Shown piece by piece: positions 41,764-64,000 of a DNA stretch of 64,000 bases (position 1 is its first letter; each line of letters starts with the position of its first letter). Origin of the DNA: Peribolospora baueri (lineage: Eukaryota); contig JAMDHS010000026.1 of NCBI GenBank assembly GCA_029717555.1, forward strand, positions 1 through 64,000, given 5' to 3'. Made by a program: the position numbers and the translations under genes. Under the pieces are notes generated by a model. That model was not told where the DNA came from. It saw only the letters and a list, made by a program, of their open reading frames with translations, and made no database searches.

Positions 41764-42158
41764 GGCGAGTGAACGGGTAAGCTGGCGAAGCTGAGAATCT
41801 ATCGCGATGGAGGTCCGACTCCAACCAGCCAACGTCCGCCGCCATCGTCGCCTCAACATGGCCCATGCTCCGCGCGCTCCTTGCCGCAGCCGATTGCCTC
41901 GTGCGGGGGTTGCTTTGTTGATCCTCGTTGCATCGTTTTCATCACGTCTTCCTACACACAGGTCCGCCGGGGCCCTACTCATCGGGTTCCTGCCCGTCTT
42001 CTTGAATGCCGCCTTCCATTTTCTTGTCTCATATATAGCCACTCGGTTCAGTTCACTCAGCTTGGGCGACCCTCTTGGCAGAGCATCGTCGGCGAGCTTG
42101 TTACTCCGACCACCACACCGACCGCCACACCCCTTCCCCCACGGTAGTCTCGTGCGAC

Positions 42159-44678
42159 ATGGGCGTCCCTGGTTTATGGAGAGAGTTGGAAGGGGCATCA
42201 GAAAAGCGAGTATTGTGACGCTATGCCTTTGCAATTGATACGCCGTCTGAGACTCTTATCTTCCCTCTCTTGGAAAACGCAGACAAGCTCTGGCCCGGAT
42301 CGCTCTCAATGCATTCGAGAAGAACGAGAATGGCATGCGTGGCTTGCGCATTGGAATCGATGCTTCTGTCTGGTTCTTTCACGCTGAGAAAGGCCAGAAC
42401 GGCGCGTGAGTCTGTAAGACCGCTGCTGAACATGCAGACGACGCGACTGAACCAAACTGTTCTCGTCGTTCTTTGCTCAGCGACCCCGCCCTCCGCGTGC
42501 TTTTTTTCCGTCTTTGCCGTCTTCTCTCCCTATCCGTCCTCCCTCTGTTTGTGTTTGACGGCCCCAAGCGGCCTATGTTCAAGCGTGGCAAGCAGATCAA
42601 GGTCTACTCTGATCCGCTCATTCCACCGTTCAAAGCCATGATCGCTGCATTCGGCTTCGAATGCCGGCAAGCGCCGGGAGAAGCAGAGGCAGAGCTTGCC
42701 TGGCTCGACATTATCAACGTCATTGACTGCGTTATGACGGACGACGTCGACGCGCTGGTGTTTGGGGCGAAGATGGTCATCCGAAAGTGGGTATTTGTGG
42801 TAAGAGGGCCCTTTTCCGGTACGAGGCTTACGAACCGCATTGTCTGTCGCCAGCTGGGGCGAAAGGCCGTCTGTTGCTAGAACGGCCACACCAGCTCGAA
42901 GAAAGGGAAAGATCACAGATGAACAGGCATCATTGGGCCTCAGAGATAACGCCACCAGCGAAGACGACCTCGACCTCGATATCGGCGCAACACAGGCTGC
43001 CGTCAAGCCAAAGGCCGACATCCACCAGGTCCGCACATATCGAGCCCTGGACGTTAAAGCCGTCACCGGTCTCTCTCGCTCCGGACTCATTTTGGTAGCT
43101 CTCATGTCGGGAGGCGACTATGACGTCGAAGGCCTCTTCCGGTGCGGGCCTAAAGTCGCCGTCGGCCTTGCTCAAGCGGGATTGGGAGAAAGTCTCATCG
43201 AAGCCTATGAGAAGTTCGGAGACCAGGCTGAGGAATGGGATATTTTCCTCGCAAAGTGGAGGGATGAGGTGCGACGAGAGCTGAAAACTAACTCGCGAGG
43301 ATGCCTCAGCAGGAAGGAGCCAAAGCTAGCGTCGAACCTTCCCGACACTTTCCTTTCTGCTGCTTCTCCTTCCACGCGGTCTATCCTGGAGGACTATGTC
43401 CGTCCGTTGACCTCGGGAAAAACACATCCGAACAGGTCGACGCCAACCTACTCATGGTCCGACCCTGACGTGACCGCTCTGGCGTCTTTCGCTCAACGCC
43501 ACTTTGACTGGAGCCCGATCTCAGTGCTCATGCGCTTTCGCTCCGTTCTATGGCCGGGAGTCGTCGTGCAGATGTTGAGGCGGAACGCATTGGAGAACGA
43601 GCGAGCGCCATGGGCAGAAGTCGCTCCTACCCCCGAGAAAGAACCAAGTTGTTCTTTGCCGTTGCAAGAGCGGCCGAAGAAATGGAACAAGAAGGACAAG
43701 AAGGACTGCCCGATGCATGCGTCTCCAAAAGCCACCCGTATCGCTAGCTTTTTTGCAAAAGTCAGCCTCGACACGGCAGCGAAGACTACGGAAACTGGAC
43801 AACGAGGTCGACACGATGCGTCCCGGACCGAGGTACCCGAAGAGGATACGCCATCTTCTCGTCCCTCTCAGAACAACCTTCTGATCGCAATTCATTCCTC
43901 GCGACAACACCCGAGCACTGGCGAGGTTCCGGAATATCGGGTCTCCATATGTCCGCAGTGTCTCGTGGACGCAGCGAAACGAGGAATCGACCGCTTCCCT
44001 CCTGAGGCGCTCCCCCAGTCTGATCTAGAAGACGTACCTTCAAGCGACGACGACAAAGGCAGAGACAGAAGGACAGATTCCGACGGCCGACCCATGAGCA
44101 GAGGCGAGACTAAGCGCCAAGTGCAACCGGGGGAACCACTGCGTCTTTGGGTCCCGATTGCATTGCTCGAGCGGGACGTCCGTGGTGCTGGACTGCGTCT
44201 GTGCAAAGCGTACCGCGCGAAGGGAGAGGAGAAGGAGGAGAAAAAGCGACGTGCGGCTGAGAAGAAGCGGCAGAGGGCGGCAGACAAGGCCTCGAAGGGA
44301 GGCCAGGCTGGCATGGCGCAAGCCACTCTCGATGCTTTTTTTTCCAAGGGCAAACCTTCTACGGCAAACACAGCGGCGCCTGCCTGCAATGTTGAGGCGA
44401 AGCGGACGCCGCGACGACTTCAGGAGACTCTTTTGCTACCTCCGAAGCGGCCCATCCCGTCCTCATCCGGGCCGTCCAACCGTTCTGACGTATGTCAATC
44501 GAGCCCCGAGTCGACGCCGCCATCGGAGTCGTTGAACAAACCAAGTCGCAAGTCTCTCCGTAAGAACAAGAAGGCGACGGCGCGGGACGGTGACTCTCGG
44601 ACTTCAAATGGCCCTTTAAGGGCCGCGTCGCCGTCCCCGTCGCAACGAAAAGCTTCTGCTGCACGCGCAGACGCATGA
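42159..44678 (+). CDS. XPG/Rad2-family nuclease, GEN1/Yen1-like Holliday-junction resolvase; 4 exons (frame continues to 44915 after a TGA)
   Basis: MGVPGLW, RIGIDASVW, LFVFDGPKRP, APGEAEAELA, MTDDVDALVFGA, ALMSGGDY..GLFRCGPKVA; the acidic catalytic residues are present. Introns 42206-42282 (GC donor), 42406-42480 and about 42787-42853. Confidence 0.88.
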
Positions 44679-45369
44679 GGGAGAACGCAGGCCGTGGGAC
44701 TAGAGACTCGGCCTATTCGCCGTGGCGGGCAGCGGAGGCTGGAACTGGCGTCGTCATCGCAGATAACGTCGCCAGTCCATCGCACGAAGGCTCCCCTCGC
44801 CGCCCTCGGTCTCGCGGTGAAGCCGAAGCCTCCGCCCTCCCCCATAATCACCAGCGCCGAGGTGGTCGTTATTACAGATAGCGAGGACGAAGTGGTGGAT
44901 CTGACGCAGCTGTGAGCAATCTTGCTTCCAGGGGAAGGCGTGCGGATGGCGAACGGAACCTACAGTAAGTAGCGCGGACAACGCTGAGGCTATGAAGAGC
45001 GCACTGGCCCCTCATATGTCGCTGAGGTTCATCCTCCTTATCATCCTTCCGTCTATCACGGTGAACGTGCATAGAAGGACGCGACGCCGTTCCTGTGCAC
45101 GTGCTTACCAGAACAACGCTGAATCGGACGGGACGGAGTTAAGGATTGGCGCGGCTTCGACCTCCCGATCGCTTCGGCCGAGAAATTTAGCCGCAGAAGC
45201 TTTGTCGACTTCCAGTGTTGACTTCCAGGGACGCTCGCTGGGAATATCCGGGCGACGATGGGTCCGTCATCTGCTTTAAAAGGCGGTCGCCATCAGGCAG
45301 GGAGGCCATTGCAATCTATTGTTTCGCCAGCGCACTCTCTCTCCTTCCCTACTTCTGCCGTATTCAGCC

Positions 45370-46729
45370 ATGTACAAGAACATCGTGGTCATAGGCGGAG
45401 GCTTCGCAGGTAGGCAGGCATCCTTGCTGACGTCGACGAGACACTAGCTTCGTCGCCCGCTCAATCGCTCCATCCCTTTTTTCTCCCTGTACCTGCAGGT
45501 GTTCACGCGGCCAAAGCACTTCAAAGCGCCAAACTCGGAGAAGGCTGGCGCATCATCGTCGTCGAGAAGAGAGAGTTCGCCCATACCCCGTGGGCCGACT
45601 TGCGAGCATCTGTTGTCCCGGGCGAAGGGTGGGAGGACAAGGCCGTGCACTCGTACGATGGTCTTTTCCCGTCTGGCTCGCCGCACGTCTTGTTGGCGGG
45701 GAACGAGGTGGTGGAGATCGGAGAAAGAGAAATTCAGCTGCGTCGGCCGGTCGAAGGAACTGACCTCGGCAACGGACCCGATCACGACAAGGTCTCGTTT
45801 GAATATCTCGTCCTCGCGACCGGTTCGTACGGACAAGCGCCTTTCGACGCCAAGGGGGACGTCAAAAGCGAAAATTTCGTCAATTCTCTTCGAACGGTGC
45901 AGGAGGAAGTGGCCCGCGCCAACAGCATCTTGATCGTCGGAGGTGGTCCTGTTGGAGTCGAGTTCGCAGGAGAGGTCACCGATTTCTACGACGGCAAGGG
46001 CCGACCTGCAAAGGAGATCACGCTGGTCGACTCGCACGAACGCTTGCTTCCCAACCTGAAACCCTCCGTTTCTCAACGTGCCCTTCGGGTCCTCGAGTCC
46101 AGAGGCGTTCATGTCCACCTGGGCGTCAAGGCTGACATTCATGGCCTCCAGTCCGGCCCTCAAGGCGAGAAGCGACGAATTGGCTTGAGCAATGGTAAGG
46201 ATGTGGAGGCGGATTACGTACTGGTGAGCCGAGGAGGGGCGGTGCCGAACAACGCGCTCGTAGAAAAGTTCGGGCGGGACATGCTCGATGCCAACGGAAG
46301 GGTGAAGGTGCGCCCAACCCTGCAAAGCGAGAAGTACGACCACATCTTTGTCGTGGGAGACATGACCGGCACGGATGAACGTGAGTGCTTCCATTTGCAT
46401 TTCCCGTCTCCTCCCTGTGCGCCCTTCTTACTCTCTGGCACCGTTGATTTGCATGTCTCTGTGTCGTCCATTTCGCTCTCACAGCAAAGGCCGCTATTCC
46501 GATCCGCGACCATGCCAAGGTGGTGGCCAACAACGTTGGTTCCCTCATCCTCGGCCGCGGCGCAACAGCGGAACATAAACCTGCGAGCTTCACGACCATG
46601 CTCCTCCCCTTCGGCAAACGCGACGGCTTTGGTCAGATTTTCGGCTGGACGCCGCCGATCTTTATGATCGTGTGGCTCAGAAAAATGGCGCTTGAAAGCT
46701 TTCCAAAGGCGATCAGTGCGAAGGCTTAA
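45370..46729 (+). CDS. AIF/AMID-like FAD/NAD(P)H-dependent oxidoreductase; 3 exons
   Basis: Introns 45410-45498 and 46381-46484. Motifs NIVVIGGGFAG, YLVLATGS, ILIVGGGPVGVEFAGE, VRPTLQ...IFVVGD. Confidence 0.9.
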
Positions 46730-47411: not shown

Positions 47412-50400
47412 ATGCTCTCAATCACTGAACACGCCTCTTCCTCTCGCAATCCTTCCCACCCCAGCGACTTGCACGCCCACGCGCTTCTCCAACTCCGCAC
47501 GCTCTTCCCAACGGCCGATCCAGACTACCTCATCCACGCTCTCTCCTTCTACCGCTCCACCGCGAAGAGCGTGGATAACCTCGTCTCCCGAGTGAGCGAG
47601 AAGGTGCTAGAGGGAAATTTTGGCGTGTTTCCGACTGTCGTTTTGGATAGGCAGGGTCGGGTTGATGAGACGAGAACGAGGAATAGAGATCTGTGAGCGG
47701 CGCCGGCGGTCTCCTTCTGCGGACGGTTCAAGGGCTAGTTATACGTTCCGCTGAAGCACTCACGAGCCTCTATATCCTCTCTTACAGTCTCACCCTCAAT
47801 GAACTCTTCGGCCACCTGCCTGTCTCCCTCCTGCGAAGGACTCTTCTCGACGTCCCTCACAGCGGCGTCTACGCCGCCGTGCGCCAAATCACGTATCTTC
47901 TTTCAAACCCGAAATCTCATCATTCCCGGAAGAGGAGCTCTGCTTCGACCGCTCAAGGCCCAAAGAGGTCCAAGGGAAAGCAGAGAGCTCTCGACCATCG
48001 CGACGAGGAAGAGATCGACATGTGGGCGTTCCTCGAGGACGATCTCGGACTTGAAGACCAGGAACTTCGAGCGAACGCACAAAGGTTTATTGAAAAGGGA
48101 GCCATTGATGCTGGAGAGGCATCTACATCTTCTCGTGGGACCGTCTCCAAATCCGTCTTTGCAGGCTTTCTACAGCTCTTCCCCGCCAACGTTCTCCCTC
48201 GAAGCGCTCTCACTCCTCGTTCCTCAATCCCCCTGCGCTCCAAACCCGGCTCTCTCCACCGCGTCGACCTTTTCCGATCGTCGTCTTATGTCTCTGCTTG
48301 CCTCTCTTTGCTCTCTTACGAATTCCCTTCCCTGAGCATCGACACCATTCGAGGCGTGATGACAGAGGCGGGAGATGACTACTCGACGAGCTGGCAGCAA
48401 TGTGACACGATGGAAGAGGGGAATGGGGCGAGGACGAGCGGGTGGTTGAGAGGGTGGACGAGGTGGTTCGGAAACGTCACGGAGGGCAACCCAGAGGTGA
48501 TTCAGAGAGCTCACACGCATCGAGGCAGCAAGCCGGACCGAGCGTGGTCGGAATTCGTCATTGATGACAGAGAGCTGGAAAGAGAAGTTTGGGAAGCGCG
48601 TGCAGCGGAAAGGACGAACATGGTCATCGCGGATGAGGAGTTTGCGAGGGTGAGGTTTAGGCTTTCCTTCCCGTTTCGCCACGCAGTTACATACTGAAGC
48701 TGATAAACCACGTTTTTCGCTCCCCCGTCCGTCGCTGGACGACCACTTTTTTTTTTCTTAAAGGAGCTCAACCGAACCCCTCTCTATACACCTCACCTGC
48801 TCGAATGTGAATGCTGCTTCGGCGATTACGCTTTTGAAGACCTCGTGGCGTGCACCACAGGATCCCATCTCTTTTGCCTCGACTGCGTGTCCCGCCACGT
48901 GCGAGAAATCGTCTTTGGTCAGGGCAAGGGTCGACCCGTTGCGCCTGTCATTCGCGGGTCTGCTCCCCAGCGTCGAGGCAACGCAGGCAACGCAGGCGAA
49001 GGTGACGGAGATGAAAGTATTCATTCTGGATGGATCGGCTGCATGTCCGCCAATGCAAACTTGGAATGCGGCGGTACGTTCAGCGATCTCGCCCTCCGCC
49101 GTGCGCTCCCTCCAGACGTCTACGTGGCTTACGAACGGGCTCTGGCGCAGAGGGAGATCGATGCCTTATGCGATGGCCCAGGCGGTGCCGCCGAGGTTGT
49201 CGAGGGCAACTCGAAGACGATACAGAAAGTTCAATGCCCTTTCTGTCCTTATGCAGAGCTCGACGACGAGGATGTCATGTCCCTTATGCGGTGGGGAAGA
49301 CGAGGCGCTTCGTCCCTGGCCTGCAAAGCCGAAAGCGGATCTGCATACGACGGAGACAATGACGACTTCAACTCGGCTTTGCTCCACCTCTGCGATATTA
49401 TCCTGCGACCACTCGCCTTAAGCACGCTATGCGCCGTCCTAGCCGCACTCGTCATGCTTTTTGCGCCGCTCTACACGCTGCTGGTCGGTGACGCCCTCTT
49501 CCCTTCCGCCTCGTCTCCGAAGTCGTCCTTGTTCTACCTCCTTCCAGAGCACTCTACTTCCTTCTCTCTCGACCACCTGAACGGCCTATTGTCACAGGCC
49601 TTCAACCCTAGGCTTGTTTTCACACGCGTGTGCAGGTATCTGGACAACATTTCCAGGCGCGTGCTGAGGGCTAGAAGGGGGACCATCTTCAGATGTCGCA
49701 ACCTACCTCAAGGCGCTGAGGCATTGCCGGCCGAAGACGGCCAGACGGGCGAGCTCGCGAAAGACTCCGCTCGCGCCACGTCGATGTATCCGCACACCAT
49801 CCCACTGTGGTCGTCTGTCTACCCTTCCTTCATACCGCCCGAGGCTTTCCCCACCGCCTCCAACACGGTCACGTACTGTGGCCGTCTCTCCTGCCTCCGC
49901 TGCTCTCGGGAGTACCAAGGTCCCTCGCACACGTGCTTTGAGGACGAGGGACAGGCCCTCCGTCTGGCGGTTGAAAAGGCCATGGCAGAGGCTGTCAAAA
50001 GAGTTTGTCCCAGGTGTGGTGTTTCTTTCGTTAAGAGCGATGGATGTGAGTGACCTCCGCTTCCGTTTGTCAGCGCCTTGCGTTCTCCTGTCCCGTGGGC
50101 CATCCTGCACACGACATGGACGCAATCTCACCTTGCTGTTCCCTTCCTTTCTTAACTATCCTCGACCGCTGACCGACTCACCCACTTCCTATGAATCCTC
50201 CTCCGGGCTATGGTCCGTCCACAACACATCCTTTCCTCCTCGTATTCAACGGTTGAACAGGCAACAAGATGGTCTGTCGTTGCGGCTTAGCGATGTGCTA
50301 CGTCTGTCGATCACCCTTGACAAACGGGTACAAGCACTTTTGTCAACACTTCCGCCCGCGGCCTGGGCCTTGTCTCATGTGCGATAAGTGGGTTCGACTT

Positions 50401-50910
50401 TAACCTCCTCCGTGATTCCATCATTCTCGGCAACGTTTTTCATACTTTTTGTTCCTCATCTTACCCCTCCTTTTCTCACCCAACATCTATGTGCACTCCA
50501 GATGCGATCTATACAAGACGGAGAACGAAGACGAAGCGGTCCGAGCGGCGGCGCGACGCGCTAAGATCGAGTTCCTGCGCGAACATCCCAGTGCGCTCGA
50601 GGCCGTGAAGAATGTCGTCGATGACGCAGGCTTTCTGGAGTCGCTCGAACTGGGACGGCCTGGGGCTTCCAGAGGGAGTGAGTCTATCCACATTTTTGTG
50701 CGGAGGTTGAGCGAGTACGGAGCGGAGCAAAGCGATTTGAAGATGAAAAGAGAAGAGCATGACGGTTTTGTGTTGACCTGCCGATTGCGACTTTATCTAT
50801 CTTACTTTTCCTCTTCTCCCGCCTGGCCTGGGACGGAAATAGTGTGGCGATGGCTGGAGGAGGGCGTGGACGCCTGCGTGGCAGGCGTCGTAGATCTGTT
50901 GTTGCCGTGA
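47412..50910 (+). CDS. RBR E3 ubiquitin ligase, RNF216/TRIAD3-like, with CUE-like N-terminal repeats; about 6 exons
   Basis: LRTLFPTADPDYL and LSYEFPSLSIDTIR (CUE-like); RING1 ECECCFGD..ACTTGSHLFCLDC; IBR CPFC...SCLRC..HTC; RING2 [39 protein letters not shown]. Confidence 0.85.
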
Positions 50911-51179
50911 AAGGAGGCCTCACGTCGTCTTTCCCGCTCGCCCTTCTCCTCTACCAGGTGGTCGTGTGTGCATACCCGTAGCAGATACGTCCGTCGCCAT
51001 CGACAGGCTGCGCCGCCTTTCCCTTGCCATCTTCCCTTGTAAGCAGACGTGCGAACATGGCTTGCTTCAATATGACAACATCGTCTTCCTGCCTTCATTG
51101 AGACTCCGGTCGTCGCCAGACAAGCCTTGGAAAAGTGGGCCGATTGGGGTTTGGATTCCGTGACAAGGTGGGAGATGGG

Positions 51180-51560
51180 GAAGTAAGACAAAAGAGGATG
51201 GCAGACATAGGAGGGAGGGCCGAGGAAAGGAATGACAGGGGGAGGGCAGAGGAAAGGGAAGACAGGGGGTAAAGCGGAAGGGAGGAAGGAAGGACAAAAA
51301 AAAAGGAAGGACGGAAGGAGAAAGAAAGAAAGAAAGAAAGAGGAAGGGAGGACACAGGAGGAAACAATGGAAAGGTGCTTCTTCTTACAACGAGGCGACG
51401 TGAGTCTCTCAAAAGGGGAAAGGTCGAAGAAAGGGGGAGGTGGTGGAAGGGACGTCGGACGTGGTAGTATATATGCGCCGAAGGGGAAGAGGAGAGGGAA
51501 AGGATACAAGAACCCAGACGGAGGAGCGAAGATAAGACGGAAGAAAAATCGCGACGTCTC
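51180..51560. repeat. Strongly purine-biased low-complexity tract (A/G on +), probably 3' UTR or intergenic
   Basis: Long GGA/GAAA/AAAG runs between the convergent RBR and C2H2 genes. Confidence 0.6.
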
Positions 51561-52190
51561 GTGGGACGACGCTCTTTTGACGCCGTTCGGTGGTGAGGCG
51601 AATGCACGGTGCGAGTAGGCCTGTTTGGACTGTGAAAGCCTCGCCGAGATCAGGTCGTCGTCGAGTCGATACGATGTGCGCGTCTATCCGAGCGGAGCGA
51701 GCGACCGAGCGACGCCGAATTGAGAAAGGCAGGTCCGAAGTCGTCTGCGCCTCGCCGAGTCGAGCTGAGCAAGATGGATGCGATGTGTTTGCCATCGAGA
51801 GACGAGGAAAGGAGAAGGGGGATGAATGGAGAACGTCCAACAGGTGTTCAATTTGGAGGTGACAGAAGGCGAAGTGAAAGACGGAGCAAGGCGTGGGAAG
51901 AGCGGCGGTTGAAGGATGGGTGGCCGGAGGGACGAAACGTAGACAGGAAAAGAGAAAGGGAGAGGAAAGAGAAAACAGAAGGCGCGCGTTGCACCTCATC
52001 CCAATCGATCGATTGAACCTCTCCCTTCGTCACTGCGACCACGATATCGAAAGCCGAGGAGCCTACGTCGTGAAGCCGAAGCCGAGATCGAGACGAGGTG
52101 GAGTAAGTGTCGAGGCCGAACTGCGACGCTCGTCCACCCGACGACCTAACGACGGCGCCCGGCTCATCCCCTCCCATCCCATCCGACCTT

Positions 52191-54594
52191 CTACTGGTCC
52201 ATCTCCATGTCCATCGCAAAATCGTCGTCCTCCGTCTCCTCGTCGTCCATCATCTCCTCGTCCCGCTCTGCCGCCTTCCCCTCACGTTGGGACCCGCCCC
52301 TGCCCTGCCTCCCACGCCCCTCGTCCTCCTCTTCCTCGTTCTTATCATCCTTATCCTCTTCATTCTCCTCATCCTCGTCCTCCTTCTCATCCTCATCCTC
52401 ATCACCTTCCTCCTCGTCCTCTTCCACCAGATCCCCATCAGGAAGGTGCCGACCGGACTGAGAAAGCGACTGGCCATACTGGTGGAAAGAGGGACGACCG
52501 TGATAAGGCGAGGTTCCAACGGCGGCAAAGCCTCCCCCAGCGACGTAGCGGGCCCCACCGTCTCCTCTTTGGACGGCAACGACGCCGTTGACAAGCTTGG
52601 CGTGCTCGAGGGAGAGCTGACTCAGCCCGACGAGAGGGCTTAACGTCATCGACGAGGACGGCGCGGAGGACACCCCGCCGCCGCCGTAGATGGGCACAGG
52701 CGCCGTTCCATTGGGTTGGGCCCGACTCGACGACGACTCGGGCACGTTTGAGAAGTCCTCGGCGGCAGCGCTGCCGCTCCTGCTCCCTCCGCTGCCGCTG
52801 TTGCTCGTCCCACTGACAGATGGGCCGGCACTGCCCTCTCGACCCGCACACGGCTCCCATCCATTCGGACCAAGGTGGTGATGATGGTGCTGGTGGTGGT
52901 GAGGTTGATGATCGTGATCCATCATGACGCCGTTTTCGCCATCGAACACGTCCCCGTGCGCAACACCCTTGCCATTGGCAGCGCTCTTAGTCGGCGTGGT
53001 GGGTTCGAAGCTCTGCGAGCGCGCTCGGTCCTGGTTGTTGCGTTTCAGTTCCATCAATAGGTCCCAGTTGAGCTTGTCCGAACCTAGAAGTCCCGATGAA
53101 GGGGGCGACACGGCAGCCGGCCAGTACGCTTTCTCGTCCTGAGGACGAGGAGGCAAAGCGAGCGAGTAGGCGAGAACGCGCGCAAGTCAACGAGAGCGCC
53201 ACAGGACAGACGGGCCGTCAAAGGGACCCTATATGTCTGAGAGAACAAAGTCTAAACTCACAGGCAACGACTTGGCCTGAGCGTCCATGCCGAAGAGGAT
53301 GGCGGCCGCCTCGAGCAGCTGCACCTGCTGGTGCTTCGACATGAGGAACTTGCTGGCCTCTTTCCAGTGGATGGTGTGCTCCCAACGGTGCTTGACGAGA
53401 CACGAAGGATGGCGATAAACCTTTGCACAGGACTCGCACTAGATGAGTGAATGGGGAAGGGGAGAGATCGAACGCACGAGCACACCAGTTAGGTCAGCGA
53501 CGCCGACCAGCGTCGGAACACGTGTGATCGAGAAGATGACCGACTTTGTGCAAGAGCTGATTGTTGGCAGAAGCGGAGCTCGCTCTCCTCGCACCAGCGC
53601 CGGTCCCATTGGGGAACTTGACCTCACCGTCAGTGCCGTCCTCGACGACGCTCGAACGGCGCCGGAAGTCCGGGAAGCCGTTCATCATCGACGTCGTCGT
53701 CGCCGAGGCGGACGCTGGGGTGAAGCCTAGCGCCGAAGCTACCGTTCCGCCGCCGCCGCCGAACCGGTCCAGGCCACCAGCGGAAGAGCTGAGCATGGAA
53801 AGGCCGGCCATGGGCGGCGAACCAGGGTGGAGATGCGGAGGGTGCGGGCCAGGCCCTGGTTGGGTAAGCGTGCTTTGTCGCGGGTGCGGGTGGGCGCCAC
53901 TGCTGAAAGGTGGAGGGGACGTCAGGCTGAGCGCTTCGGCGGCGGCAGTCAGCGAGGTGGAGAGCGAGGCGACGCTGTATGCGGGCGAAGGCACCGAACC
54001 AGCGGCCGACGTGGGCAGTCCGCTGGACACGTTCCCGGCACCCGTAGCGCGTGGAGCCTGCCTCGCCAACGAGTGTAAAGCAGCATCCACGCCTCCGGCG
54101 GCCGCCACCGTGGTGGACTCGGACAGCCTACGACGCACGTTGGTGCTGCTCATCCTCCTCGTCTTTCCACCGAACGACGAGGAGGCTGGAGCGGGCGAGC
54201 CGGTCGTGCCGGAAGGTATTTCGGGCGGCATGGGGAAGACCGAGTCGGAGTCGGCTATCGCGTTCGCTCCTCCCCCTCCACGAACGGGGAAGGAGCCGAC
54301 GGTGGGTGAACCTCTCCAAGATGAGCCAAAGCCATTGCCGTTGCCGTTGCCGTTGCCGTTGCGATCATCGGACACGGACTGAGGGGTGGCGCCGAGGGCG
54401 AGCGAAGTTCGATTGGCGGCGCCAGCGCCCTTTCCGGAGTTGGATATGGCGATGGGCGCTGAGCCGCCTGATCCAGCAGCGACCATGGGCGCTGACGCTA
54501 GAAAGCCGTCCTCGACCTTGGGCCCCGTCGCTAAATGGGCACGCGAGTCATTTTCGACCGCCATTCCGGCGGGCGACGCAGCTTCGGCAGTCAT
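52191..54594 (-). CDS. Fungal single-C2H2 zinc-finger protein with acidic tail; 3 coding exons
   Basis: Spliced NQLLHKCESCAKVYRHPSCLVKHRWEHTIHWKEASKFLMSKHQQVQLLEAAAIL...LPDEKAYWPAAVSPP. The middle exon (about 53262-53438) lies in a frame missing from the ORF track. Poly-His and D/E-rich C-terminus. Confidence 0.85.
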
Positions 54595-54633
54595 ATGTCG
54601 TTTCAGATAAAGCAGGAGCTAGCGTGTATGACG

Positions 54634-54870
54634 CTGTAGGCGTGTGGAATGAAGGGAAGCAGAGGGTCAACGGCAGGCGTTGGCCGCCAGGCCAACACGA
54701 AGAGGATGAGCAAGTAGACGTCAGCCGGCGGTCGTCGTCCTATCCCTCTCCATCGCGGCAACTCCCGAATACATCATCCGACAGGGAGACATCCCTGCCC
54801 CATTTCCCTCGACGTTCGCCATGTCCAGGAAACGCTCGGAGCGGCTACGACGCCTGGGACGGATGCTCAC
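54634..54870 (-). other. Probable 5' UTR intron of the C2H2 gene
   Basis: AAG|GTGAGC donor at 54870; TTGAC branch-like site, pyrimidine tract and CTACAG acceptor at 54634. An in-frame TAG lies between the acceptor and ATG 54594. Confidence 0.5.
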
Positions 54871-56204
54871 CTTGCTCCTGCCCTCTTCTCCCTCTCTCGA
54901 GCGCTTGCTCGACGGGGAAATCACAGAGGCGCGCACCACGCCTCCCGATCAGGGCGCCTTTCTGTCTGTCTGCCTGCCTACTCTGACTTCCCTCTGCCCC
55001 ACCGAGGGTGCCGGCCCCAAAGGGTCGGACAATCGAGCGTAGATCGGAGAAGAAAAAGCGTAGCAAGGACCGAGGCAAGGAAGCGGCTCGCCTGGTGGTC
55101 TCGAGAAGAAGACGTAAAGAGTGTGTAGGCGTGCGTGGGGACCTGGGTTGGGAGGTCGGGGTGCGGGGGTTAAGAAAAAAGCCTCCTGTTCTCCGGAAAG
55201 CTGGTGCGTCAGTCAGGGACGACGACCGGCTGCCCGTTTCCGTCCTCGAAGGGGGAGGCTCTCTCTTTTGCTCGGTGGGCTTCTGAGGGCGTGACAAGGC
55301 AGCGAAACGATGGGAGCAAGCGAGACGTTGGCGTGGTAGAGGAAGAAGTGGGCCGAGAAAGAAGGCCAAGATGTGCGAGCGAGAGGAAGTGTGAGTGAGG
55401 GCTGGCCGGACGAGCGCCTTCGCCAGCTGGCTAGCTGCCTGCCTCGCAGCTCGCTCACTCACCCACTCACGAGCGACGAAAAGGCAACGTCGAGAGCGCG
55501 GCCGGGCGAAACGACCGAGGGCTCGGGTTTGCAAAGAAGAAAGATGGAGTGGGGAGAGGAAGAGAAGAGAGAGAAGTCCGCCGACGGCCCGTCCGTCGAA
55601 CTCGGACTCGTGCGCTCGCTCGCTCGCTGGCCGCGGCAGGGATTGGGGGGCGAGCGTATTATTTGCTTGCCGCAGCTTTTCAGATTTCGTCCGAGTCCCA
55701 CTTTTTTTTGCCAGGGACCGCAACAAGTCCCGTGCGGGGGCTGGCTGCCGGATTACAATCCGCATTTGCTTGGCTTGTAGCCCATTTGTATTGTACGCCC
55801 GCTCCATTGGATCGACGGAAAGCACGGCACGCAGGAGTGGATCTCCTGTGGGAAAAATGGCAACAAACATCGAATCTCTAGTCTCGAGTGTTATACAGCG
55901 CCCGGTTCTCCGACAAAGGGAAGGGAAGAAATTGCGGTAGGAAGGGGAAGGCGAGCTCGTGGATGACGGATGAAAGGAAGGCGAAAGACGAAGAAGGGAT
56001 GGAATTGGGGACGGGGGCGAGGATGCGAAGCGGTCAGAGGTCGAGCGGGTGAAGCGGGATGGAGATGGAAAAGGTCAAAAAAGAGAGGAGGGAAAAGGAA
56101 GATGGGAGATGGGATGCAAGGCATCGAAGGACATGATACAGGCGTCGGTGATTGGGGGGACAAAATACCTCCAAGTCGGTTGGGGCTCAGATGAAGTGAA
56201 ACGA

Positions 56205-58630
56205 TCAGTCCAGAGACACGTTCCAGCGCCACCTAGACGAACGAGAGATAGGATCGAAGTGAGCGTGTCAGTAAGGAAACCTGCAGCCGAGGGAGGCACA
56301 CACTTCGAGTCTAGTCTGCGTCGACGTCGATCCTTACCTGTCCTCTTGAAACCCTTGCGCGGTGTCGGCCAGCATGATCTGGATGAAGGAAGAGCCATGC
56401 TCGTCGAGTGAGAAGACCGACGTCTCCAGGGAGGTGGGCGGCGTACGATGGGGAGATGGCTCACCTCTCGCCTCTTCTGGACATACACCGTCAGATCGGT
56501 GACCTTCTGTCGCAAGCCCGGAATCGTCTGTGGATCGATGGGCTTCTCCAGTTGCTCTGAAAGGTCTTCCACCGCTCGCTCTAGATCACTGTGATGCGAC
56601 GACGAAAGAAGAGACAGGGCGACTCCGATGAGAACCGGCTTCGACGATGGCCCAGCCGTCAAGACAAAGGCGTGGCCGAAGGCACGCTCGCGCTCACCGC
56701 TGGTTGTCTTCGAACAGCTCGGTCATATTGTCCCTCGCGAGATAGAACGCCATGCAGTATGTCCACTTGAGCGTGGAGCGACACTGTCCGAGCATGTCAA
56801 CGGCCTTCTTGAGGAACTGCACCTCGATCCACGTCAGATCGGACGTGAGCTGCATCTCCTCCATCTTCTTCTCCGTGCGCGAGTACAGTTCCCTCTCCAG
56901 CCTCGCCGACTGCTCGTGGTTCGCCCACCGGTTGAAATAGTGCAGGTACCTCTCCAAGCTCGCTCGGCTCTTCGCCTGCGAGTCCCGTGCCTCGGCCCCA
57001 GATTTTTCGTCGAACCGGTTGCACTTGTACCAGTTCGTCCCGTGCTCCGACCACGGGCCCGAGCAGATCCAGCACCACTCGTGCCGGCAGTGTCGGCACG
57101 TCATGTGATTGCACCCGCCGTTCTTCTCGATCGTCGAGCTGCACTTCGGGCACTCCTTCGTGTGAGCATGGACCCAATTGGCCTGTCGTATTCCACGCGA
57201 CGCGACCAGGAAGCGCGAACGTCAGCAAAGGAACGGCGCGTACAAGGTGCCCAAACCATCGACGACTCACCGTCTCCGAATCGTCCTCGCACTTCTTCAC
57301 CCACTTCCTCACGATTTTACAAACCACAGGCTGGTGATCCGTGACAGCGCATCCGAAGCAGAATCGAAGGCCGCATGCGCATTGCACGGAGGGAACGACG
57401 CGGTTGAGCGACTTGGAAGTGACGTGGCATTCGATGGCGTGCTCGCAGTTGGGAGCTGGACACCATCGCATGAAGGAAGAGTCATCGACGTAGGTTCGAT
57501 TGAGAAGGCGGAGGTATCTAGGTGGAGAAAAAGAGCAATACGAGTGCGCTCAGTCGCACGTCGTCGTCGCGAGCGCACTCGACCATAGCGGCCGCCCCCA
57601 CGTTGGGAGGGACATTCGACTCACCGGCAGAAGGTATCTTCATCGACGAGTAAGCTGACCGTCCTCTCATCCAAGATGGCATTGCATCCTTCCGCCATAC
57701 ACTGCACACGCCTGCTCTCGCCCTCCTCCTTGACCTTCTGAATGACATAATACCTGTAGCAGTCCTTGCAGAAGCGGTGACCGCACGCCAAAGCGAGAGT
57801 GTCCAGCCCTTGACCTTCGGAGCCGAACGGCTCCTTTCCCCCGCCCGTCCCGGCACCTTTCGTCTTTCCTTTCCAGCGGCCAGACGACGACGAAGAAGGT
57901 TCCACGCCGTCGGCTTCGGAGAAGCAGATATCGCACACGAAGCCAGAGTCGGCGTAGAGGCGCTGGATTCGGGGCGCGTTCGGACTGTCGATGTCGCACA
58001 CGCCGGCTTCGAGCGATACCCGTTCTGGTGCGTCCATGTACCGCTCTATAAGTCGTTCCTTGTTCCAGGAGAAGTGGCGGAGGAGTATGGCGGCGTCGGT
58101 ATCCTGTGAGGTAAGATCGCGGAGGAAGCGGAGAAAAGGGACGGTTAGGTCAGTAAAGCCGCGAGGGGGCGTAAAAGAGCCTCTGGACCGTGACCGCTTA
58201 CCTTGAGCATAAACATGCCAGCCACATGGGCGACCTCCTGTTTCTGCGCCCTCACAATGTCGTCCGCGTCCAAGACCTTGAAGTCGACCTCGTAGCTCTT
58301 CTTCCTCGCGCGGTCCGCGGACAAGTCGACGTCGAAACCCCCCGCTTCGACGTCGTCATCGTCCGCGTCCTCGTGGGCCAGGTTGTCGTCGTCGTCGTCG
58401 AAATCGTTCAAGCCGACCTCGTCGTCGTCATCGTCGTCGTCGCTGTAGTTGTCCGGACCAGAGCCGACGCTGTCCTCGTCCATGGTGTCCAACATCTCAT
58501 CGTCCTCGAGATACTTTGCGTGGCGAGCGACGACAAGAGAAGAGCGGGGAGTTTGAGAACGGCCTTTCGTTCGGGAAACGGTCGATCAGTAAATGCGAGC
58601 GTCACTCACACGATCCGACGAGGAGGACAT
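56205..58630 (-). CDS. Ariadne-family RBR E3 ubiquitin ligase (ARIH1/Hel1/Dbl4-like); 8 exons
   Basis: Acidic N-terminus; [113 protein letters not shown]; ends RWRWNVSLD*. Confidence 0.95.
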
Positions 58631-59084
58631 TCTCTCGGCTGTCCAACGTCAACTGTTCGACGAGGCCCAATCGGTGGGTGTACGGGGTTGAGGGGGCAAG
58701 ACAAGTGCGCGGGTGGTAGCAAGTGGTAGACCGTCAGGGCGACGGAAAGGCAAGGACAAGCGGCGGGCTATGGGAGGGAGGAAGCGAAAAGTTTGGAGGA
58801 GGTGAGTGGAGGAAAGAGATGGGCGAGAGGCAGCCGGGTCGGGAAAAGGATGGTAGAGTTGTCGTAGTTGGACGTCAAGAGGGTTGTCGGCGGGCAAGCC
58901 GGAGCGCAACTGACGTACGATCCGACGCTCGTCCTTGCCGCAGCAACGCATCCCAAGTGCCGGCGACCCGGGACGGGTGGAGGACAACGATCAGACGACG
59001 GAAGCAAGGCTTTGTGATCACCACTCGCAAGCGCTATCTACATGGACGGCGGCAACGGAAGGCGCGAGTTGTCACGAGGTGCGT

Positions 59085-59148
59085 GAGAGAGAGAGAGTGT
59101 GTGTGTGTTGTGTGAATGTGAAAAAGAGTGAGAGAGAGAGAGAGAGAG
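59085..59148. repeat. Compound (GA)n(GT)n...(GA)n microsatellite
   Basis: Directly visible in the divergent Ariadne/coiled-coil intergenic region. Confidence 0.9.
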
Positions 59149-59459
59149 TTTAGAGGACAGGCTGACTAACAGTCATCGGCTCCAAAGAGTGGTGGCAGGC
59201 AAGCTCACTTCCTCACCCGGCCAGCGCGCGCTGGAACGCCCAACCTTCTCAGCACAAAATCATCCTCGATGTCAGCTTGCCTTATAAGTACTCGTCGGTG
59301 ACATGCTACCCTCCCATGCAATCATGCGACAGTTCTTTCTTCCTTGACCCTTCCGTCTTTCGCACTTTTCTCACCGTCCAACGTCTTTGCACTCTCAGCT
59401 GTTCTTGCCTCTGGTGGACCGACGCTCTTCCTTAGTTCTCGACAGTGGACGCATCGCTC

Positions 59460-62400
59460 ATGGTGATCCACAAACATCGGCAGGGCAGGGGTCTCACCTA
59501 CGCCGAGCGTGAGCTTCTCGAGCTGGCACGAGTAGCCCCTTGGCCGCCGACCCTACTCATATGTCGTGCACGCGTTCTCGTCCGAACGGCTCTCCCTCCC
59601 TTCCAGGCGTCCTTGGCGCTCTGTCCCACTTGCACCACCGTAACCACCACAAGAATGAGTTCCATCACGCCACTATCCGAAGAGAAAGTGAGGGACATCT
59701 CTTTGTTATGACGCCACTGGACACCGCCCATCGTCCGCCATATTGATGCCCCGTGCCTCGAACGCAATTGCGTTTCAGTCCGTGAGATTGCAGGGACCCG
59801 GAAGGACGCGCTGTCCCAGCAGTGGAGTGCACATGTTTCAGTGAGATCCACCAGCGATATAGCGAAATAGGCAGTGCCACTGCTGTGTACAACAGCGCCT
59901 CCTCACCCGTCCCCACTACTTCCCCTTACCCTTTCAACACAGAATGCCCTTCACAAGCTCGCAAGCACGCCATTGGTCCACTCCGAGGGGCACCAAATCT
60001 ATGGCTTGACACCGGTGGCAAAGCGCTCCATCCAGTCCCGCCGCCATAGGCTCCATCTGGCAAAGGAGGAAATGCGGAGAATCACGCGAGGGACGGACGT
60101 ACCTGAAGAAGATCGGATCTGGTCAGAGGTGCTGGATGAAGTGGGCGAGGAAGGAGGGACACTCGGTGTGAGGAGGGAAAAGAAGAGAAAGAGAGCTGCG
60201 GGGGAAACTGAGAAGACCGATAAGAGCAGGACGCCAGGGCGGCGCACGCGCAAGGCGACGGCTGCGAAGGTATCGATAAAGGCAAAGAAGGCATCCAAGA
60301 CCTCAAAGCCAGGAGCAGCCAAATTACTTGCAGCGACTCGGCGTCACAAAGCGCGTGTGGTCCGGAAAGAAGCTGGTCCAAGTCGAGGACGAGGACGCGC
60401 CGGAGCAGCAAAGACCGGCGGTACGCGTCGCAAACGTGACGAGCAAAGGACGACAACCGTGGCACGGAGAAGAGCGAGGAGCGTCTCGCCAGCATCTTCC
60501 ACACCGCCTCTGTCCGAGGCGGCGTCAAGTGCGGCGTCTTCTTCCGTGGCTTCGCCTGTCGAGTCTGAGGTAGGAGAGGAAGCGGGGTCCACCGCTGCGC
60601 AGCTTCCGTCTCCTGGATCCGCGGTGGACGGTATCGAGGTCGAGATGCAAGGACGCGGTGGTCCGTCAGGCAAGGGCGCACGGAGAGAAAGAGTGAAGGA
60701 CTCGGCGACGATGCGTCCAGGGGGACTGAGCAGATTGAAAAAGCCCGAGGTAAGCTAGCTTCCTCTTCACGCTACCCACGACGCAGCCCTTATCTCTCAC
60801 GCCCTCGCTCGCTCGCTTCCATCCTTATAGCTTCTCGATCTGGTCAAAGAATTGCACGGTCAAGTGGCCGACAAGGACAAGTCCATCCAGAGCTTCCGGG
60901 CTCAGTCGAAAGACAAGGCAAGTTCCGGACAATTTTTGAATGGTGACTTTGAAAGGATCACTGAGCGACCGCGTTCACCTAACAGGACGACATCATCGCT
61001 GATTTGCGGGAGCAACTTTCATCCAGCCATTGGGAGGCGCTCAGCTCCGGCTGTCAAGCCTCTACTATTGGCATAGGTCTGATTGAGGAGGCCAGAGAGT
61101 TGGAGAAAGTCCGTCTGGAGCTGGAGAAGGCCAAAATGCGAAACGTGGGCACTTCTTCCTGGAATGATGCAGCCGTAGACGTGAGCACCTCGACGCCCGG
61201 GCAAGTACCTCCCCTGGCGGATGAAGGACAGGGAGCCAGTGCCGTGGATTCAGGCGATGGGCATCCGGGATTCGACCTGACTGATCTAGTGACCGGCAGC
61301 CCGCTGAGCGTCGATGCTGGTGCCGGTGAGATCGAAGTTGCTGGCGCGGACGTTGAGATGCGTGTGGACGTCGAGCCGAGCGGTGCAGGCGAGGATGCCC
61401 AAGCGACGGCGCGTGGCGAAAGGGCGGAGTCGCCAGGCACGTTCGGAACGACTGTGCCCGTTGTGGCCAACACACTCCTGGAAAAATTAACTCCCTGGAG
61501 CAGTGCTTCGCCGTCAATAGCTCTGACGGAGAGCGACAAAGAGGCCGAGGCGCAAGGTCATTTTGGCCTAGACGTGACTATGGAGGGTCGCCGTAGAGCC
61601 GAGGCCAAGGTCGTCGTCTTGGAGAAGAGCCTCGCGGATGCTCGGATGCGTGTCGAGGAACTCGGCATCGAGGTCGACACTCTCCGAACGCATGCCATCG
61701 CAGAGGAGGATGAACGGGCAGACTTGTTGCAAAGGTTGGACGAGCGCGCGAAGGAGAACGTGACGATCGGGGAAAAGTTTCGAGACCTCGTCGCGGGTCT
61801 CGCAGGCGTGGCCCGTGAGCATAAGGAAGGTGGTGACGAGTCGGTTCCAGAAGGGAACGACGCGAACGACTACGCGGCCACGCATGCTCGCGGCGCTGGG
61901 CTGATGGGCTTCATAGGCTCGAAAATTTCATCGTTGAAGGAGGCATGTCGCAAGCTCCGGGACAGCAGAGACGATCTCGAGGAGCGACAACGAAAGGAAG
62001 TGGAGGCAAGACAAGCCAGCGTGAAGGTCGGCAATGAGGCTATGGCGGAAAAGGAGAGGACGGACGAAAAGCTTGCCCAGCAAACCGGTGACCTCGTGGA
62101 GTTGAGACAGGAGAGGGACGAGCTGAAAGCAGAGGTAGAGCGGCTAGAAACGAGCGCGGCGCAGCTGGCGAAAGAGCATGTCGAAAGGATCACGCAGCTA
62201 GAGACAGAACTGGTCGAAGGGAGGCAGAAAGTGAGGAAGGCTTTTGAAGAGAGGGACCGAGCTGTGCTGGAGCAAAAGGATATGGAGAGGGCATTACAGG
62301 AAGCGCGAGAAAAGCTCGAACTGCTGGAGAAGGAGAAAGGTGAGTCTTGTCCGTATTGCAGTCTCCCGCATCACTGACCTTGCAACGTGCTCTTGAAATC

Positions 62401-64000
62401 ACACAGAAGAGGCAGATGCCTCAAAACTCAATGAATTGCAGTCTCTGCGCGAACAAGCCGTTCACACCTCTGCCCGGCTCGAAGGGCTCGAAAAACGGGC
62501 AGCGTCTACTGCAGCAGAGAAGGTCGCTTTCGAGGTGCAGCTTGAGGAGGCAAGGATCAAGCTGTTGGCAGCACAGGAAGCAGAGCGCAATGCCACAGAT
62601 GAACTAGCATCAGCAAAGGAGGAGGCCGCTCGTGCTGTACACAAGCTGAAGGAAGAGGTGGAAGACGCTCGTCGAGAAGCAAGAGATGCTGAAGCAGCCC
62701 GAGTCAAGATGGCGCAAGAGATCGAAGCGGCAGACAAGCTGAGGAAAGAGGTGGAGGATGCCCACGAAAAAGCGAGAAACTCTGAAGCGGCACGAGCCAA
62801 GGCGGTCCAAGAGCTTGAAAAACTGCAAGAAATGCACCAAGCGACGGTGGAGACCGTCTCTCAACTCGAAGGTGAGCTGCCAGGGCTCAAGGTGGACCTT
62901 GCACTGGCGCTTGAGCAGAGAGATTTGGCAGTGTTTGCGCTGAAAGAGAAGGAGGAGGACATGACCCAGAAGGTTGAGGAAGCGGAGATTGTAAAGCGGA
63001 AGGAGCTAAATGAGCTCAAGGAGAGATTTGAGGAGGAGAGGGCCAGCTTGAAGGCCGAAGTTGCCGAGAAGGAAACACAATGTGAGCTCTCAGGACATCA
63101 GGGATTGATTCATAATTGACTTATCCCTATGTCGCATCTGTTTTGCTCCTTCAGTGAAATCCGTCCAAGAAAAGCTTGCAATGCATGAAGAGCGCCTTGT
63201 AAAGGCAGAGGAAGAGCTCAAGGAGAGGAGCACGCTGGTGGCAGAGCTGGAGGTAGAACTGGCCGGTACATCTGCATTGCGCAGGTCCCGAGAGATCGAC
63301 TTCAAGATGGCCCTAGAGGCCAAGGACTCCATGAGTGAGCTGCGTTCACTATGAAATGTGAAGTCGCTTACAGCTGACACCCGTGATGGCTGTAACAATT
63401 CAAAATCTGTGCCCTCAAGTTGAGTGCTGGGAAGAAGAGGCGAAACGTCTTCAAACGCAGGCGGCGACGCACCGGGAGGAGCTTGGAAGGATGCAGTCGG
63501 AGCTCGTGGAGGTGAAGGCGAGGTCAGAGGCTCTGCAAGAGAAGGTTTATGAGAAGGAGAAAGAAGCGGTCAAGGCAAAAGAGGACTTGAGGCTGACGGA
63601 TGGGAGGCTAGCAGAAATCATGTTGAGATTCGGAGAGGTGTGAGTGAATGACCGCTTCTTTACGCTCTTTGCCCCGCCGCCGCTCTTCTTGACATTATTG
63701 ACTTGGGATGCTTGCCTAAACTACAGAGAGGCTGATCATGCCAAGGTGGTCGAGTCCAACAATGTGCTCACTACCGAGCTCGAGTCCATTCGGCTTGCGC
63801 ATGCCACATCCCTCACGGAGATGCAGGAGCTGCATGCTGAGGCGGTGCAGATCCTCCGAGCAGAAATAAAGGCGCTGAAGGGAAGCTTGGAGGTAGCACA
63901 GAGAGAATTGGAGGAGGAGAGGCAGGGGTGGGGGCAGGAGAGAGAGCGACGAAAGGAAGCAGAAGAAGGCAGGCAGAAAGCTAGAGATGAGGTGGAAAGG
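59460..64000 (+). CDS. Large protein with putative winged-helix (H15-like) N-terminus, K/R-rich linker and long coiled coil; 3'-truncated by the window
   Basis: Exons 59460-59508, 59607-59687, 59779-59840, 59943-60749, 60831-60917, 60986 to about 62339 and four more, all joining in frame. E/K/A/L/R-rich heptad-like sequence from about 61590 to the window end. Start codon is tentative. Confidence 0.75.

Follow-up and report, generated by a model that had tools for sequence, protein, structure and literature searches.

Lamins and other intermediate-filament proteins are recognised by an intermediate-filament rod, and by an Ig-fold and a CaaX box at the C-terminus. To our knowledge, fungi have no lamins, and the anchoring of fungal chromatin beyond the pore basket and the inner-membrane proteins is only partly known. 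Among other long coiled-coil proteins, Tpr and Mlp1/Mlp2 carry no N-terminal basic head and linker, the proteins of the Zip1/SYCP1 type (about 800-1000 aa) have their basic DNA-binding end at the C-terminus, and SMC and Rad50 open with an ATPase head that carries a Walker A motif and flanks their coiled coil. Tpr/Mlp proteins, spindle-pole-body spacers and transverse filaments evolve fast and keep their architecture rather than their sequence. In proteins of the Hop2-Mnd1 type, an N-terminal DNA-binding winged helix is followed by a coiled coil, but these proteins are only about 200-230 aa long and form short zippers. In linker histones, the globular H15 domain is a winged helix of three helices whose beta-hairpin wing comes after helix 3. 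The C-terminal tail directly follows this domain and is dominated by Lys (K/A/P-rich, Arg-poor), and we know of no canonical H1 with a rod as long as 700 aa. Likewise, we know of no folded N-terminal head with a basic linker described for plant CRWN/NMCP or trypanosome NUP-1/NUP-2. These last proteins are described (PMC5159534, PMC4010787) as lineage-restricted long coiled coils with an NLS and no sequence relation to lamins.

The gene compared here with these systems lies at the end of a 64,000-nucleotide stretch of Peribolospora baueri DNA (the window), on the + strand. It starts at 59460, runs off the window end at 64000 and comprises 10 predicted exons with at least 1263 codons; a contig of run X1 extends 1428 nt past 64000. 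An Ariadne-type E3 gene is its neighbour on one side. The start codon, the first ATG downstream of an in-frame stop, opens exon 1 (59460-59508; aa 1-16 plus 1 nt; donor gtgagc), in which the head begins. It is followed by exon 2 (59607-59687; aa 17-43; acceptor ccag, donor gtgagg), exon 3 (59779-59840; aa 44-64; acceptor ttcag, donor gtgaga) and exon 4 (59943-60749; aa 65-333), which completes the head (at about 60050) and encodes helices and a basic linker. A short helical or coiled-coil segment begins in exon 5 (60831-60917; aa 334-362). Exon 6 (60986-62339; aa 363-813) encodes helices at aa 364-416, an acidic spacer and, from aa 561, the first part of the rod, which continues through exons 7 (62407-63081; aa 814-1038), 8 (63155-63334; aa 1039-1098), 9 (63420-63639; aa 1099-1171; AAG acceptor) and 10 (63727-64000; aa 1172-1263 onward), with the frame still open at the window end. 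When exons 1-4 were spliced by their coordinates, the four-exon head peptide of the original prediction was recovered without a difference, at aa 12-94 of the model. Its joining of these exons to the coiled-coil exons in one gene was also supported. One frame stayed open through exons 5-10 to 64000.

The splice sites of the model are canonical: introns 1-3 were all of the form GTGAG...YAG, and intron 5 (60918-60985) was of the GC-AG type. Of the only four GTRAG words in 59166-59942, three serve as predicted donors. Among 200 mononucleotide shuffles, 16 contained a comparable open chain from an ATG to exon 4, and the same splice words also permit 10 alternative open chains. Codon-usage log-odds in the predicted frame of exons 4-10 ranged from +12 to +108 bits, with the maximum in exon 6, whereas the other two frames were negative. 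Exons 1-3 jointly scored +3.3 bits in the predicted frame versus -9.8 and -12.1 in the others, which is weak on its own, and exon 3 alone scored -2.0. The frame of exon 4 is open upstream of Met108 as far as the acceptor. Antisense ORFs were considered as real genes and set aside, as their codon scores were around zero or negative, and no Rfam family matched over 58000-64000. The locus is a genuine protein-coding gene, rich in introns and with predicted exon joins, from a fungal-type eukaryote whose lineage is poorly sampled.

The head of the protein (aa 1-100) is basic and His-rich, with a pI of 11.6. Exon 2 encodes a putative helix 1 and a loop in which eight of the residues at aa 24-37 are His, and exon 3 a putative helix 2 and the beginning of helix 3; a His-rich insertion of 14 residues separates putative helices 1 and 2. 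Hydrophobic-moment peaks at about aa 12-22, 41-45 and 65-68, a heuristic signal only, were compatible with three helices and coincided with helices 1-3 as placed in the original prediction. In the AlphaFold2 model of the exon-4 fragment (aa 65-164), a confident helix at aa 88-113 was followed by an acidic one at aa 120-134. The putative wing was unstructured, with no beta-hairpin and a pLDDT of about 55 over aa 65-84, in a fragment that lacks helices 1 and 2 and two thirds of the domain. Neither Linker_histone (PF00538) nor any winged-helix family of Pfam matched the exon pieces at E<=10, a search that had almost no power with pieces of 20-100 aa. A PDB sequence search with aa 65-164 gave just a chance-level likeness to HDAC4 (E 0.16), and residues 1-90 of exon 4 had no usable match in the Atlas. 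By eye, a possible likeness of the head to the winged-helix families HARE-HTH, DEK_C and Hop2 was also considered and set aside.

About 40 aa past the head, beyond the acidic helix at aa 120-134, begins a basic disordered linker (aa 141-333; 60171-60749) with a net charge of +32. A motif scan located in it the monopartite NLS-like motif KKRKR at aa 144-148 (60180-60194), as had been predicted after the head, and a second basic cluster, RRKR, at aa 226-229. The predicted basic segment corresponds to a 24-aa stretch rich in K/A/S/T at aa 168-191 (60252-60323), the sole part of the linker that resembles an H1 tail. The linker as a whole does not: its 193 residues include 21 Lys, 29 Arg, 30 Ala and 12 Pro, so that Arg exceeds Lys, and the acidic helix intervenes between it and the head. 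No GRP core of an AT-hook was seen when the translation of the linker was read by eye.

A helix of the pattern LSRL...KEL follows at aa 326-341 and is interrupted by intron 4. SAP (PF02037), a helix-loop-helix motif of 35 aa, matched neither half of this intron-split motif at E<=10 in Pfam, while the exon-5 half weakly matched the coiled-coil family PKcGMP_CC (14.5 bits), and the heptad periodicity reached z = 2.7 in the window starting at aa 337. The helix, which had been compared to SAP/HeH motifs for its LKK.EL-type pattern, is more simply read as the probable start of a short coiled coil. Readings of aa 320-370 as a bZIP or as centrosomin motif 1 were dropped, as they were without Pfam support. 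The acidic spacer at aa 416-560 (61145-61579) has a net charge of -20, and AlphaFold2 indicated disorder over aa 415-560. The rod then extends from aa 561 to the window end. It contains two Pro in 703 aa, consists to 68% of A/E/L/K/R/Q, and its hydrophobic residues recur with a 3.5-residue period (z up to 4.3); AlphaFold2 folded its exon-6 part into long helices (aa 561-643 and aa 655-812; pLDDT as high as 96). The several hundred residues of coiled-coil-like sequence in the original prediction are borne out as a helical rod by periodicity, composition and the exon-6 structure model. Within exon 7, a tandem duplication of 93 nt (31 aa) is present at 62641-62813.

Independent support for the gene model came from contigs of a related organism (run X3), which differed by 115 substitutions in 4701 nt (about 2.5%). 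All 10 indels fell in predicted introns (2, 3, 6, 8 and 9) and none in exons, in a compared stretch of which only about 19% is non-exonic. Those at 59748, 59765, 59869 and 59906 lie in the introns flanking exon 3, and that at 63407 inside the intron preceding exon 9. Exons 1-3, exon 1 included, had no substitutions and no indels, in comparison to two substitutions and four indels in their three introns. The substitution classes were drawn from 40 of the 115 substitutions, 34 of which were exonic. These 34 comprised 22 non-synonymous and 12 synonymous changes, distributed over codon positions as 8/12/14, and their density (34 in 2049 nt) was not below that of the intronic changes (5 in 440 nt). 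Together, this density and the mostly non-synonymous changes indicate weak protein constraint outside the head. The head, with one of the 34 in about 300 coding nt as against 33 in the other approximately 1750 exonic nt, is the best-conserved part of the protein. The protein is fast-evolving.

Searches for relatives were empty. No Pfam family reached its cut-off on any single exon, and a word-indexed protein search yielded no match for exon 4 among proteins of 472-2000 aa and none for exon 6 among proteins of 791-2255 aa. HMMER found no match at E<=0.001 for exon 4 in 1.84 billion representative proteins, and of 371 patterns that exon 6 matched in a metagenome scan, none was confirmed. As a control, the adjoining Yen1/GEN1 ORF found 51 relatives, the best of them 34-37% identical over about one third of the query. 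Since this neighbour finds only such distant relatives, the lineage is poorly sampled and the empty homologue searches say little. The nearest Atlas clusters of exon 6 were generic long coiled-coil families (TPR-like, TMF, Bre1 and centrosomin), with 116-129 of 256 features shared. Foldseek gave no PDB match at E<=0.001 for the exon-6 model; its weak top rows, with E above 2, were cytoskeletal (cilia doublet, and vimentin with E 3.2). The literature searches turned up no description of a fungal protein that joins a head of the H15 or winged-helix type to a long coiled coil. The winged-helix passages of one preprint (10.64898/2026.01.19.700424) concern that domain of Rec8 and are not relevant here.

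Each of the described systems shares some features with this protein and differs in others. The likeness to H1/H5 lies in an N-terminal module that is small (about 80-100 aa), basic and marked by three helix-like segments, and in the basic low-complexity region after it, with its 24-aa K/A/S/T stretch. However, here the head has a His-rich insertion, an acidic helix precedes a basic region in which Arg is at least as frequent as Lys, and PF00538 is unmatched on the short exon pieces. With Zip1/SYCP1, the protein shares a long coiled coil flanked by a basic, presumably DNA-binding region, and very fast evolution with undetected orthologues, but its basic end is N-terminal and its length already exceeds 1263 aa. 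The order of parts would be that of Hop2-Mnd1 if the head is a winged helix; those proteins are, however, far shorter than the 1263 aa or more found here, and the TBPIP and Mnd1 models of Pfam did not match the exon pieces. The SMC/Rad50 layout is not apparent: the head is only 100 aa long, and no SMC_N or AAA family matched (best AAA_lid_13, 12.8 bits versus a cut-off of 27). The Filament model of Pfam (the intermediate-filament rod) gave no match at E<=1 with exons 4 and 6-10, and the C-terminus of the protein lies beyond 64000. The likeness to CRWN/NMCP and NUP-1/NUP-2 is one of architecture only, and the presumably folded head with its basic linker sets the present protein apart.

We consider the chances about even that the gene encodes a nuclear coiled-coil scaffold that is lineage-restricted and fast-evolving, measures at least 1263 aa and binds nucleic acid through its N-terminal region, its nuclear location being predicted from short basic motifs. 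In such a scaffold, KKRKR and RRKR together with the strongly basic disordered linker would bring the protein into the nucleus, where the linker may contact DNA or RNA non-specifically. The head would be a folded helical module that gives more specific contact, putatively of the winged-helix type. The nearly proline-free rod of at least 700 aa would pair with a second chain into a coiled coil whose length, at a rise of about 0.15 nm per residue, would be on the order of 100 nm, and which could space or bridge whatever the C-terminus of the protein binds.

Rather unlikely, yet ahead of the other alternatives, is that the protein has diverged from within a known class of nuclear or spindle-pole coiled coils and is, for example, a nuclear-basket filament of the Tpr/Mlp type, a spindle-pole-body spacer or a transverse filament of the synaptonemal complex. 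Such proteins typically diverge fast and mostly by non-synonymous changes, as this one does, and a basic DNA-binding-like region beside a long coiled coil resembles the transverse filament layout. With Tpr and Mlp1/Mlp2, the protein shares a very long acidic coiled coil and a presumed nuclear location. The top Atlas clusters of exon 6 were TPR-like (score 0.93), ahead of TMF, Bre1 and centrosomin, but the 123-129 of 256 features shared are in the range for chance or distant matches. Exon 10 matched TPR_MLP1_2 (PF07926) weakly, with 17.7 bits (E 0.0037), half of the 36-bit cut-off, in a domain that is possibly cut by the exon 9/10 junction and the window end. No other Tpr model matched exons 4 and 6-10 at E<=1, which leaves exons 6-9 with no Tpr/Mlp family match, and centrosomin motif 1 was likewise unmatched. 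Furthermore, Tpr/Mlp proteins open directly with the coiled coil, whereas here a basic head and linker precede it.

Less probable than this is a cytoplasmic long coiled-coil protein, for instance a golgin, a cytoskeletal linker or a motor adaptor, whose head binds membrane, a small GTPase or the cytoskeleton and whose basic region is not a nuclear signal. Most long coiled-coil proteins are indeed cytoplasmic, no DNA-binding domain was detected by Pfam on the exon pieces, and the cytoskeletal rows of Foldseek, with E above 2, point weakly in the same direction. Nevertheless, a linker of +32 with KKRKR and RRKR, and a head with a pI of 11.6, are more typical of nuclear or nucleolar proteins, and the golgin, GRIP, CH and CAP-Gly families all remained below their cut-offs.

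The original prediction, made by eye, went further than the nuclear scaffold that we favour. Taken in full, it would make the head a true H15 winged helix with an H1-like tail, joined to a chromatin-binding rod that would serve as a nucleoskeletal tether and fungal analogue of lamin. The three amphipathic-helix signals lie where helices 1-3 were placed, the head is basic and the most conserved part of the protein, the 24-aa K/A/S/T stretch and the NLS-like motifs come after it, and the long rod is confirmed. These observations are countered by the lack of a Linker_histone, SAP or other winged-helix match in Pfam on the exon pieces at E<=10 (with low power), by the excess of Arg over Lys in the linker and the acidic helix before it, and by the 14-residue His-rich insertion between putative helices 1 and 2. 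The AlphaFold2 model of aa 65-164, a partial domain, is also without the hairpin, and for the lamin-analogue part, exons 4 and 6-10 gave no Filament match at E<=1. We therefore regard this reading as improbable, somewhat more so than a cytoplasmic protein.

Still more doubtful is that the head is an annotation artefact, with exons 1-3 untranslated or outside the transcript and the protein starting at Met108: the low joint codon score of exons 1-3 (negative for exon 3) and the 10 alternative open chains would allow it, but three strong GTGAG donors stand in phase-compatible order, any such chain arose in few of the shuffles, these exons lack the substitutions and indels that their introns carry, and the exon-4 frame remains open upstream of Met108 to its acceptor.

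In the boldest form, the protein would be the fungal lineage's own chromatin-anchored nucleoskeletal filament, in which an H1-like winged-helix head, a DNA-binding linker and a rod of about 100 nm tether chromatin to the nuclear envelope, the pores or itself, as a functional analogue of lamin. We give this the lowest probability of all, and a nucleoskeletal or chromatin-tether function is purely conjectural. The present evidence supports the ordinary reading only, an orphan coiled-coil protein that evolves fast, has a basic N-terminus of nuclear type and belongs to a poorly sampled lineage, and the practical value of the analysis lies in a well-supported gene model. Should the head prove to bind chromatin and the rod to form filaments, a fungus would have in this protein a nuclear scaffold specific to its lineage.

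The sequence 59460-64000 (+), spliced by scripted coordinates, forms a single intron-rich gene. Its ten predicted exons (59460-59508, 59607-59687, 59779-59840, 59943-60749, 60831-60917, 60986-62339, 62407-63081, 63155-63334, 63420-63639 and 63727-64000, all on the + strand) gave at least 1263 codons in one frame, with no stop; in exon 10 this frame runs open up to the window end. Predicted introns number nine and span 67-102 nt; GT donors occur in eight of them (GTGAG in most), and all other than introns 5 and 8 are of the GT...YAG form. Predicted intron 5 (60918-60985) has a GC donor, AAG/gcaagt, and predicted intron 8 (63335-63419) has an AAG acceptor. With codon log-odds trained on five Pfam-supported ORFs within the window, the predicted frame of exons 4-10 scored +12 to +108 bits, the other two frames were negative, and antisense ORFs were about zero or negative. 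The strongest support for the predicted gene model comes from the indels that separate the window from X3, a sequencing run of a related organism. The X3 contigs span the whole gene stretch with 115 substitutions (about 2.5%), and all 10 indels fall in predicted introns 2, 3, 6, 8 and 9; none is exonic, although non-exonic sequence accounts for only about 19% of the stretch compared. The contigs of another run, X1, were 100% identical to the window and may come from its own source, so they gave no independent support.

Substitution classes were taken from 40 of the 115 X3 substitutions, at positions up to 61948. Among these 40, 34 were exonic (12 synonymous and 22 non-synonymous; codon positions 8/12/14), and their density was not lower in exons (34 in 2049 nt) than in introns (5 in 440 nt). 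Divergence was even higher in the distal rod, with 66 differences in 1792 nt, while the proximal part had 51 in 2938 nt. The protein thus holds its frame while its residues change fast.

The predicted protein starts with a head (aa 1-100; pI 11.6, 14 His) with hydrophobic-moment peaks around aa 12-22, 41-45 and 65-68. Exon 2 (59607-59687) encodes a His-rich loop (8 His in 14 residues, aa 24-37), which could serve in metal binding or pH sensing, or may be mere low complexity. A helix at aa 88-113, confidently predicted by AlphaFold2 (pLDDT 75-90), and an acidic helix (aa 120-134) precede a disordered basic linker (aa 141-333; net charge +32; 21 Lys, 29 Arg), which includes a 24-aa K/A/S/T stretch (aa 168-191). 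The linker is followed by a short segment of helical character (aa 334-416), with a heptad z of 2.7 and two helices in the AlphaFold2 model (aa 364-381 and 387-416), and then by a disordered acidic spacer (aa 416-560; net charge -20; pLDDT below 50). The rod, from aa 561 to at least 1263, is helical: it has 2 Pro in 703 aa, 68% A/E/L/K/R/Q, a 3.5-residue periodicity (z up to 4.3) and AlphaFold2 helices at aa 561-643 and 655-812 (pLDDT up to 96). A tandem duplication at 62641-62813 (93-nt unit, 1.9 copies, 75% matches) gives the rod a 31-aa internal repeat. Another rod-coding stretch of about 47 nt in exon 6, 62212-62258, is found again where another contig, of 36 kb, ends in both X1 and X3, with no further copy within the window; this, together with a word depth about doubled, indicates that it is present twice in the genome. 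The second copy could be a paralogue fragment, a gene conversion or a small repeat.

We see about an even chance that the protein is a long coiled-coil scaffold of the nucleus, probably dimeric; the gene structure, domain layout and helical rod come from the results above, whereas nuclear localisation, nucleic-acid binding and rod pairing are what we infer. A diverged protein of the Tpr/Mlp, spindle-pole or synaptonemal-complex type is possible, if rather unlikely. No Pfam family reached its cut-off on any single exon, and the top scores, among them TPR_MLP1_2 (17.7 bits, cut-off 36) and DivIC (17.3), were coiled-coil noise. In Atlas, a protein-cluster feature comparison, the nearest neighbours of exon 6 were generic clusters of long coiled coils (TPR-like, TMF, Bre1, centrosomin), with 116-129 of 256 features in common, in the chance/distant range. 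A cytoplasmic coiled-coil protein we consider improbable beside a basic linker carrying KKRKR at aa 144 and RRKR at aa 226.

The original prediction, a nucleoskeletal tether with a true H15 head, is more doubtful still. Its architecture stood, and its head peptide matched spliced exons 1-4 letter for letter (aa 12-94); its domain identities are at best putative. Pfam found no Linker_histone, SAP, Filament, SMC or other DNA-binding family on the separate exons, a weak search for the head, which was seen as unspliced pieces of 16, 27, 21 and about 36 residues. Neither the putative helix 3 nor the putative wing took on structure when AlphaFold2 modelled the exon-4 fragment (aa 65-164), which lacks two thirds of the domain and so makes no fair test of it. 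The supposed H1 tail is contradicted by composition, with Arg at least as frequent as Lys, and the acidic helix separates it from the head; for the supposed SAP helix, the beginning of a short coiled coil is the simpler reading. Where they could be assessed, no defining features of H1, SAP, Tpr/Mlp, lamins or SMC were seen, and the part of the literature available describes no fungal protein pairing a winged-helix or H15 head with a long coiled coil. Residues 73-140 (59967-60170) show a chance-level resemblance to part of the catalytic domain of human HDAC4 (its residues 67-133; 15.6 bits, E 0.16), with a VHSE.H..YG word at its centre; this likeness is too weak and too short for a deacetylase fold.

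Least probable is that the head was mis-modelled and translation really begins at Met108. In favour of this, exons 1-3 jointly scored only +3.3 bits (vs -9.8 and -12.1 in the other frames), and the real sequence permits ten alternative chains. Against it, three of the four GTRAG words in 59166-59942 are predicted donors, and an open ATG-to-exon-4 chain of such words arose in only 16 of 200 shuffles. The head is the exception to fast change, with one substitution (S72N) in about 300 coding nt vs X3.

No relatives were found by a word-indexed protein search with exons 4 and 6, by HMMER with exon 4 against 1.84 billion representatives, or, for the coiled-coil protein, among metagenome contigs. 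As a control, the Yen1/GEN1 ORF 15 kb upstream gave 51 relatives among fungi; even the best of them, from Dothideomycetes and Sporobolomyces alike, shared just 34-37% identity across a third of the query. These low identities show a poorly sampled lineage, one in which a coiled-coil protein that evolves fast would be expected to appear orphan.

The upstream neighbour, divergently transcribed, is an Ariadne-type RBR E3 ubiquitin ligase gene (56797-58585, - strand; IBR, UBA_ARI1 and RING matches) with a D/E-rich N-terminal ORF. The 0.9-kb intergenic region common to both genes holds an (AG)12 microsatellite (59125-59148), and 58000-64000 contains no RNA families. Within 38033-46667 lie a Fab1/PIKfyve-like ORF (-; FYVE and Cpn60_TCP1), the Yen1/GEN1 resolvase ORF (+) and a pyridine-nucleotide-disulphide oxidoreductase ORF (+). 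Pfam gave no family at E<=0.001 for several long ORFs in 47687-56722 (47687-48697, 48707-50053, 50802-51683, 52191-53186, 53494-54618, 54845-56074 and 56075-56722); these could belong, as exons, to lineage-specific genes, or could be high-GC ORFs that do not code.

In the proposed scaffold, the basic N-terminal region (head and linker) would be the part that contacts nucleic acid or chromatin, and the C-terminus beyond 64000 would set what the rod connects to. As far as the available accounts of plant CRWN/NMCP and trypanosome NUP-1 describe these lineage-specific nuclear coiled-coil proteins, the likeness is in architecture only. The protein would belong with the nuclear-type long coiled-coil proteins, a known kind.
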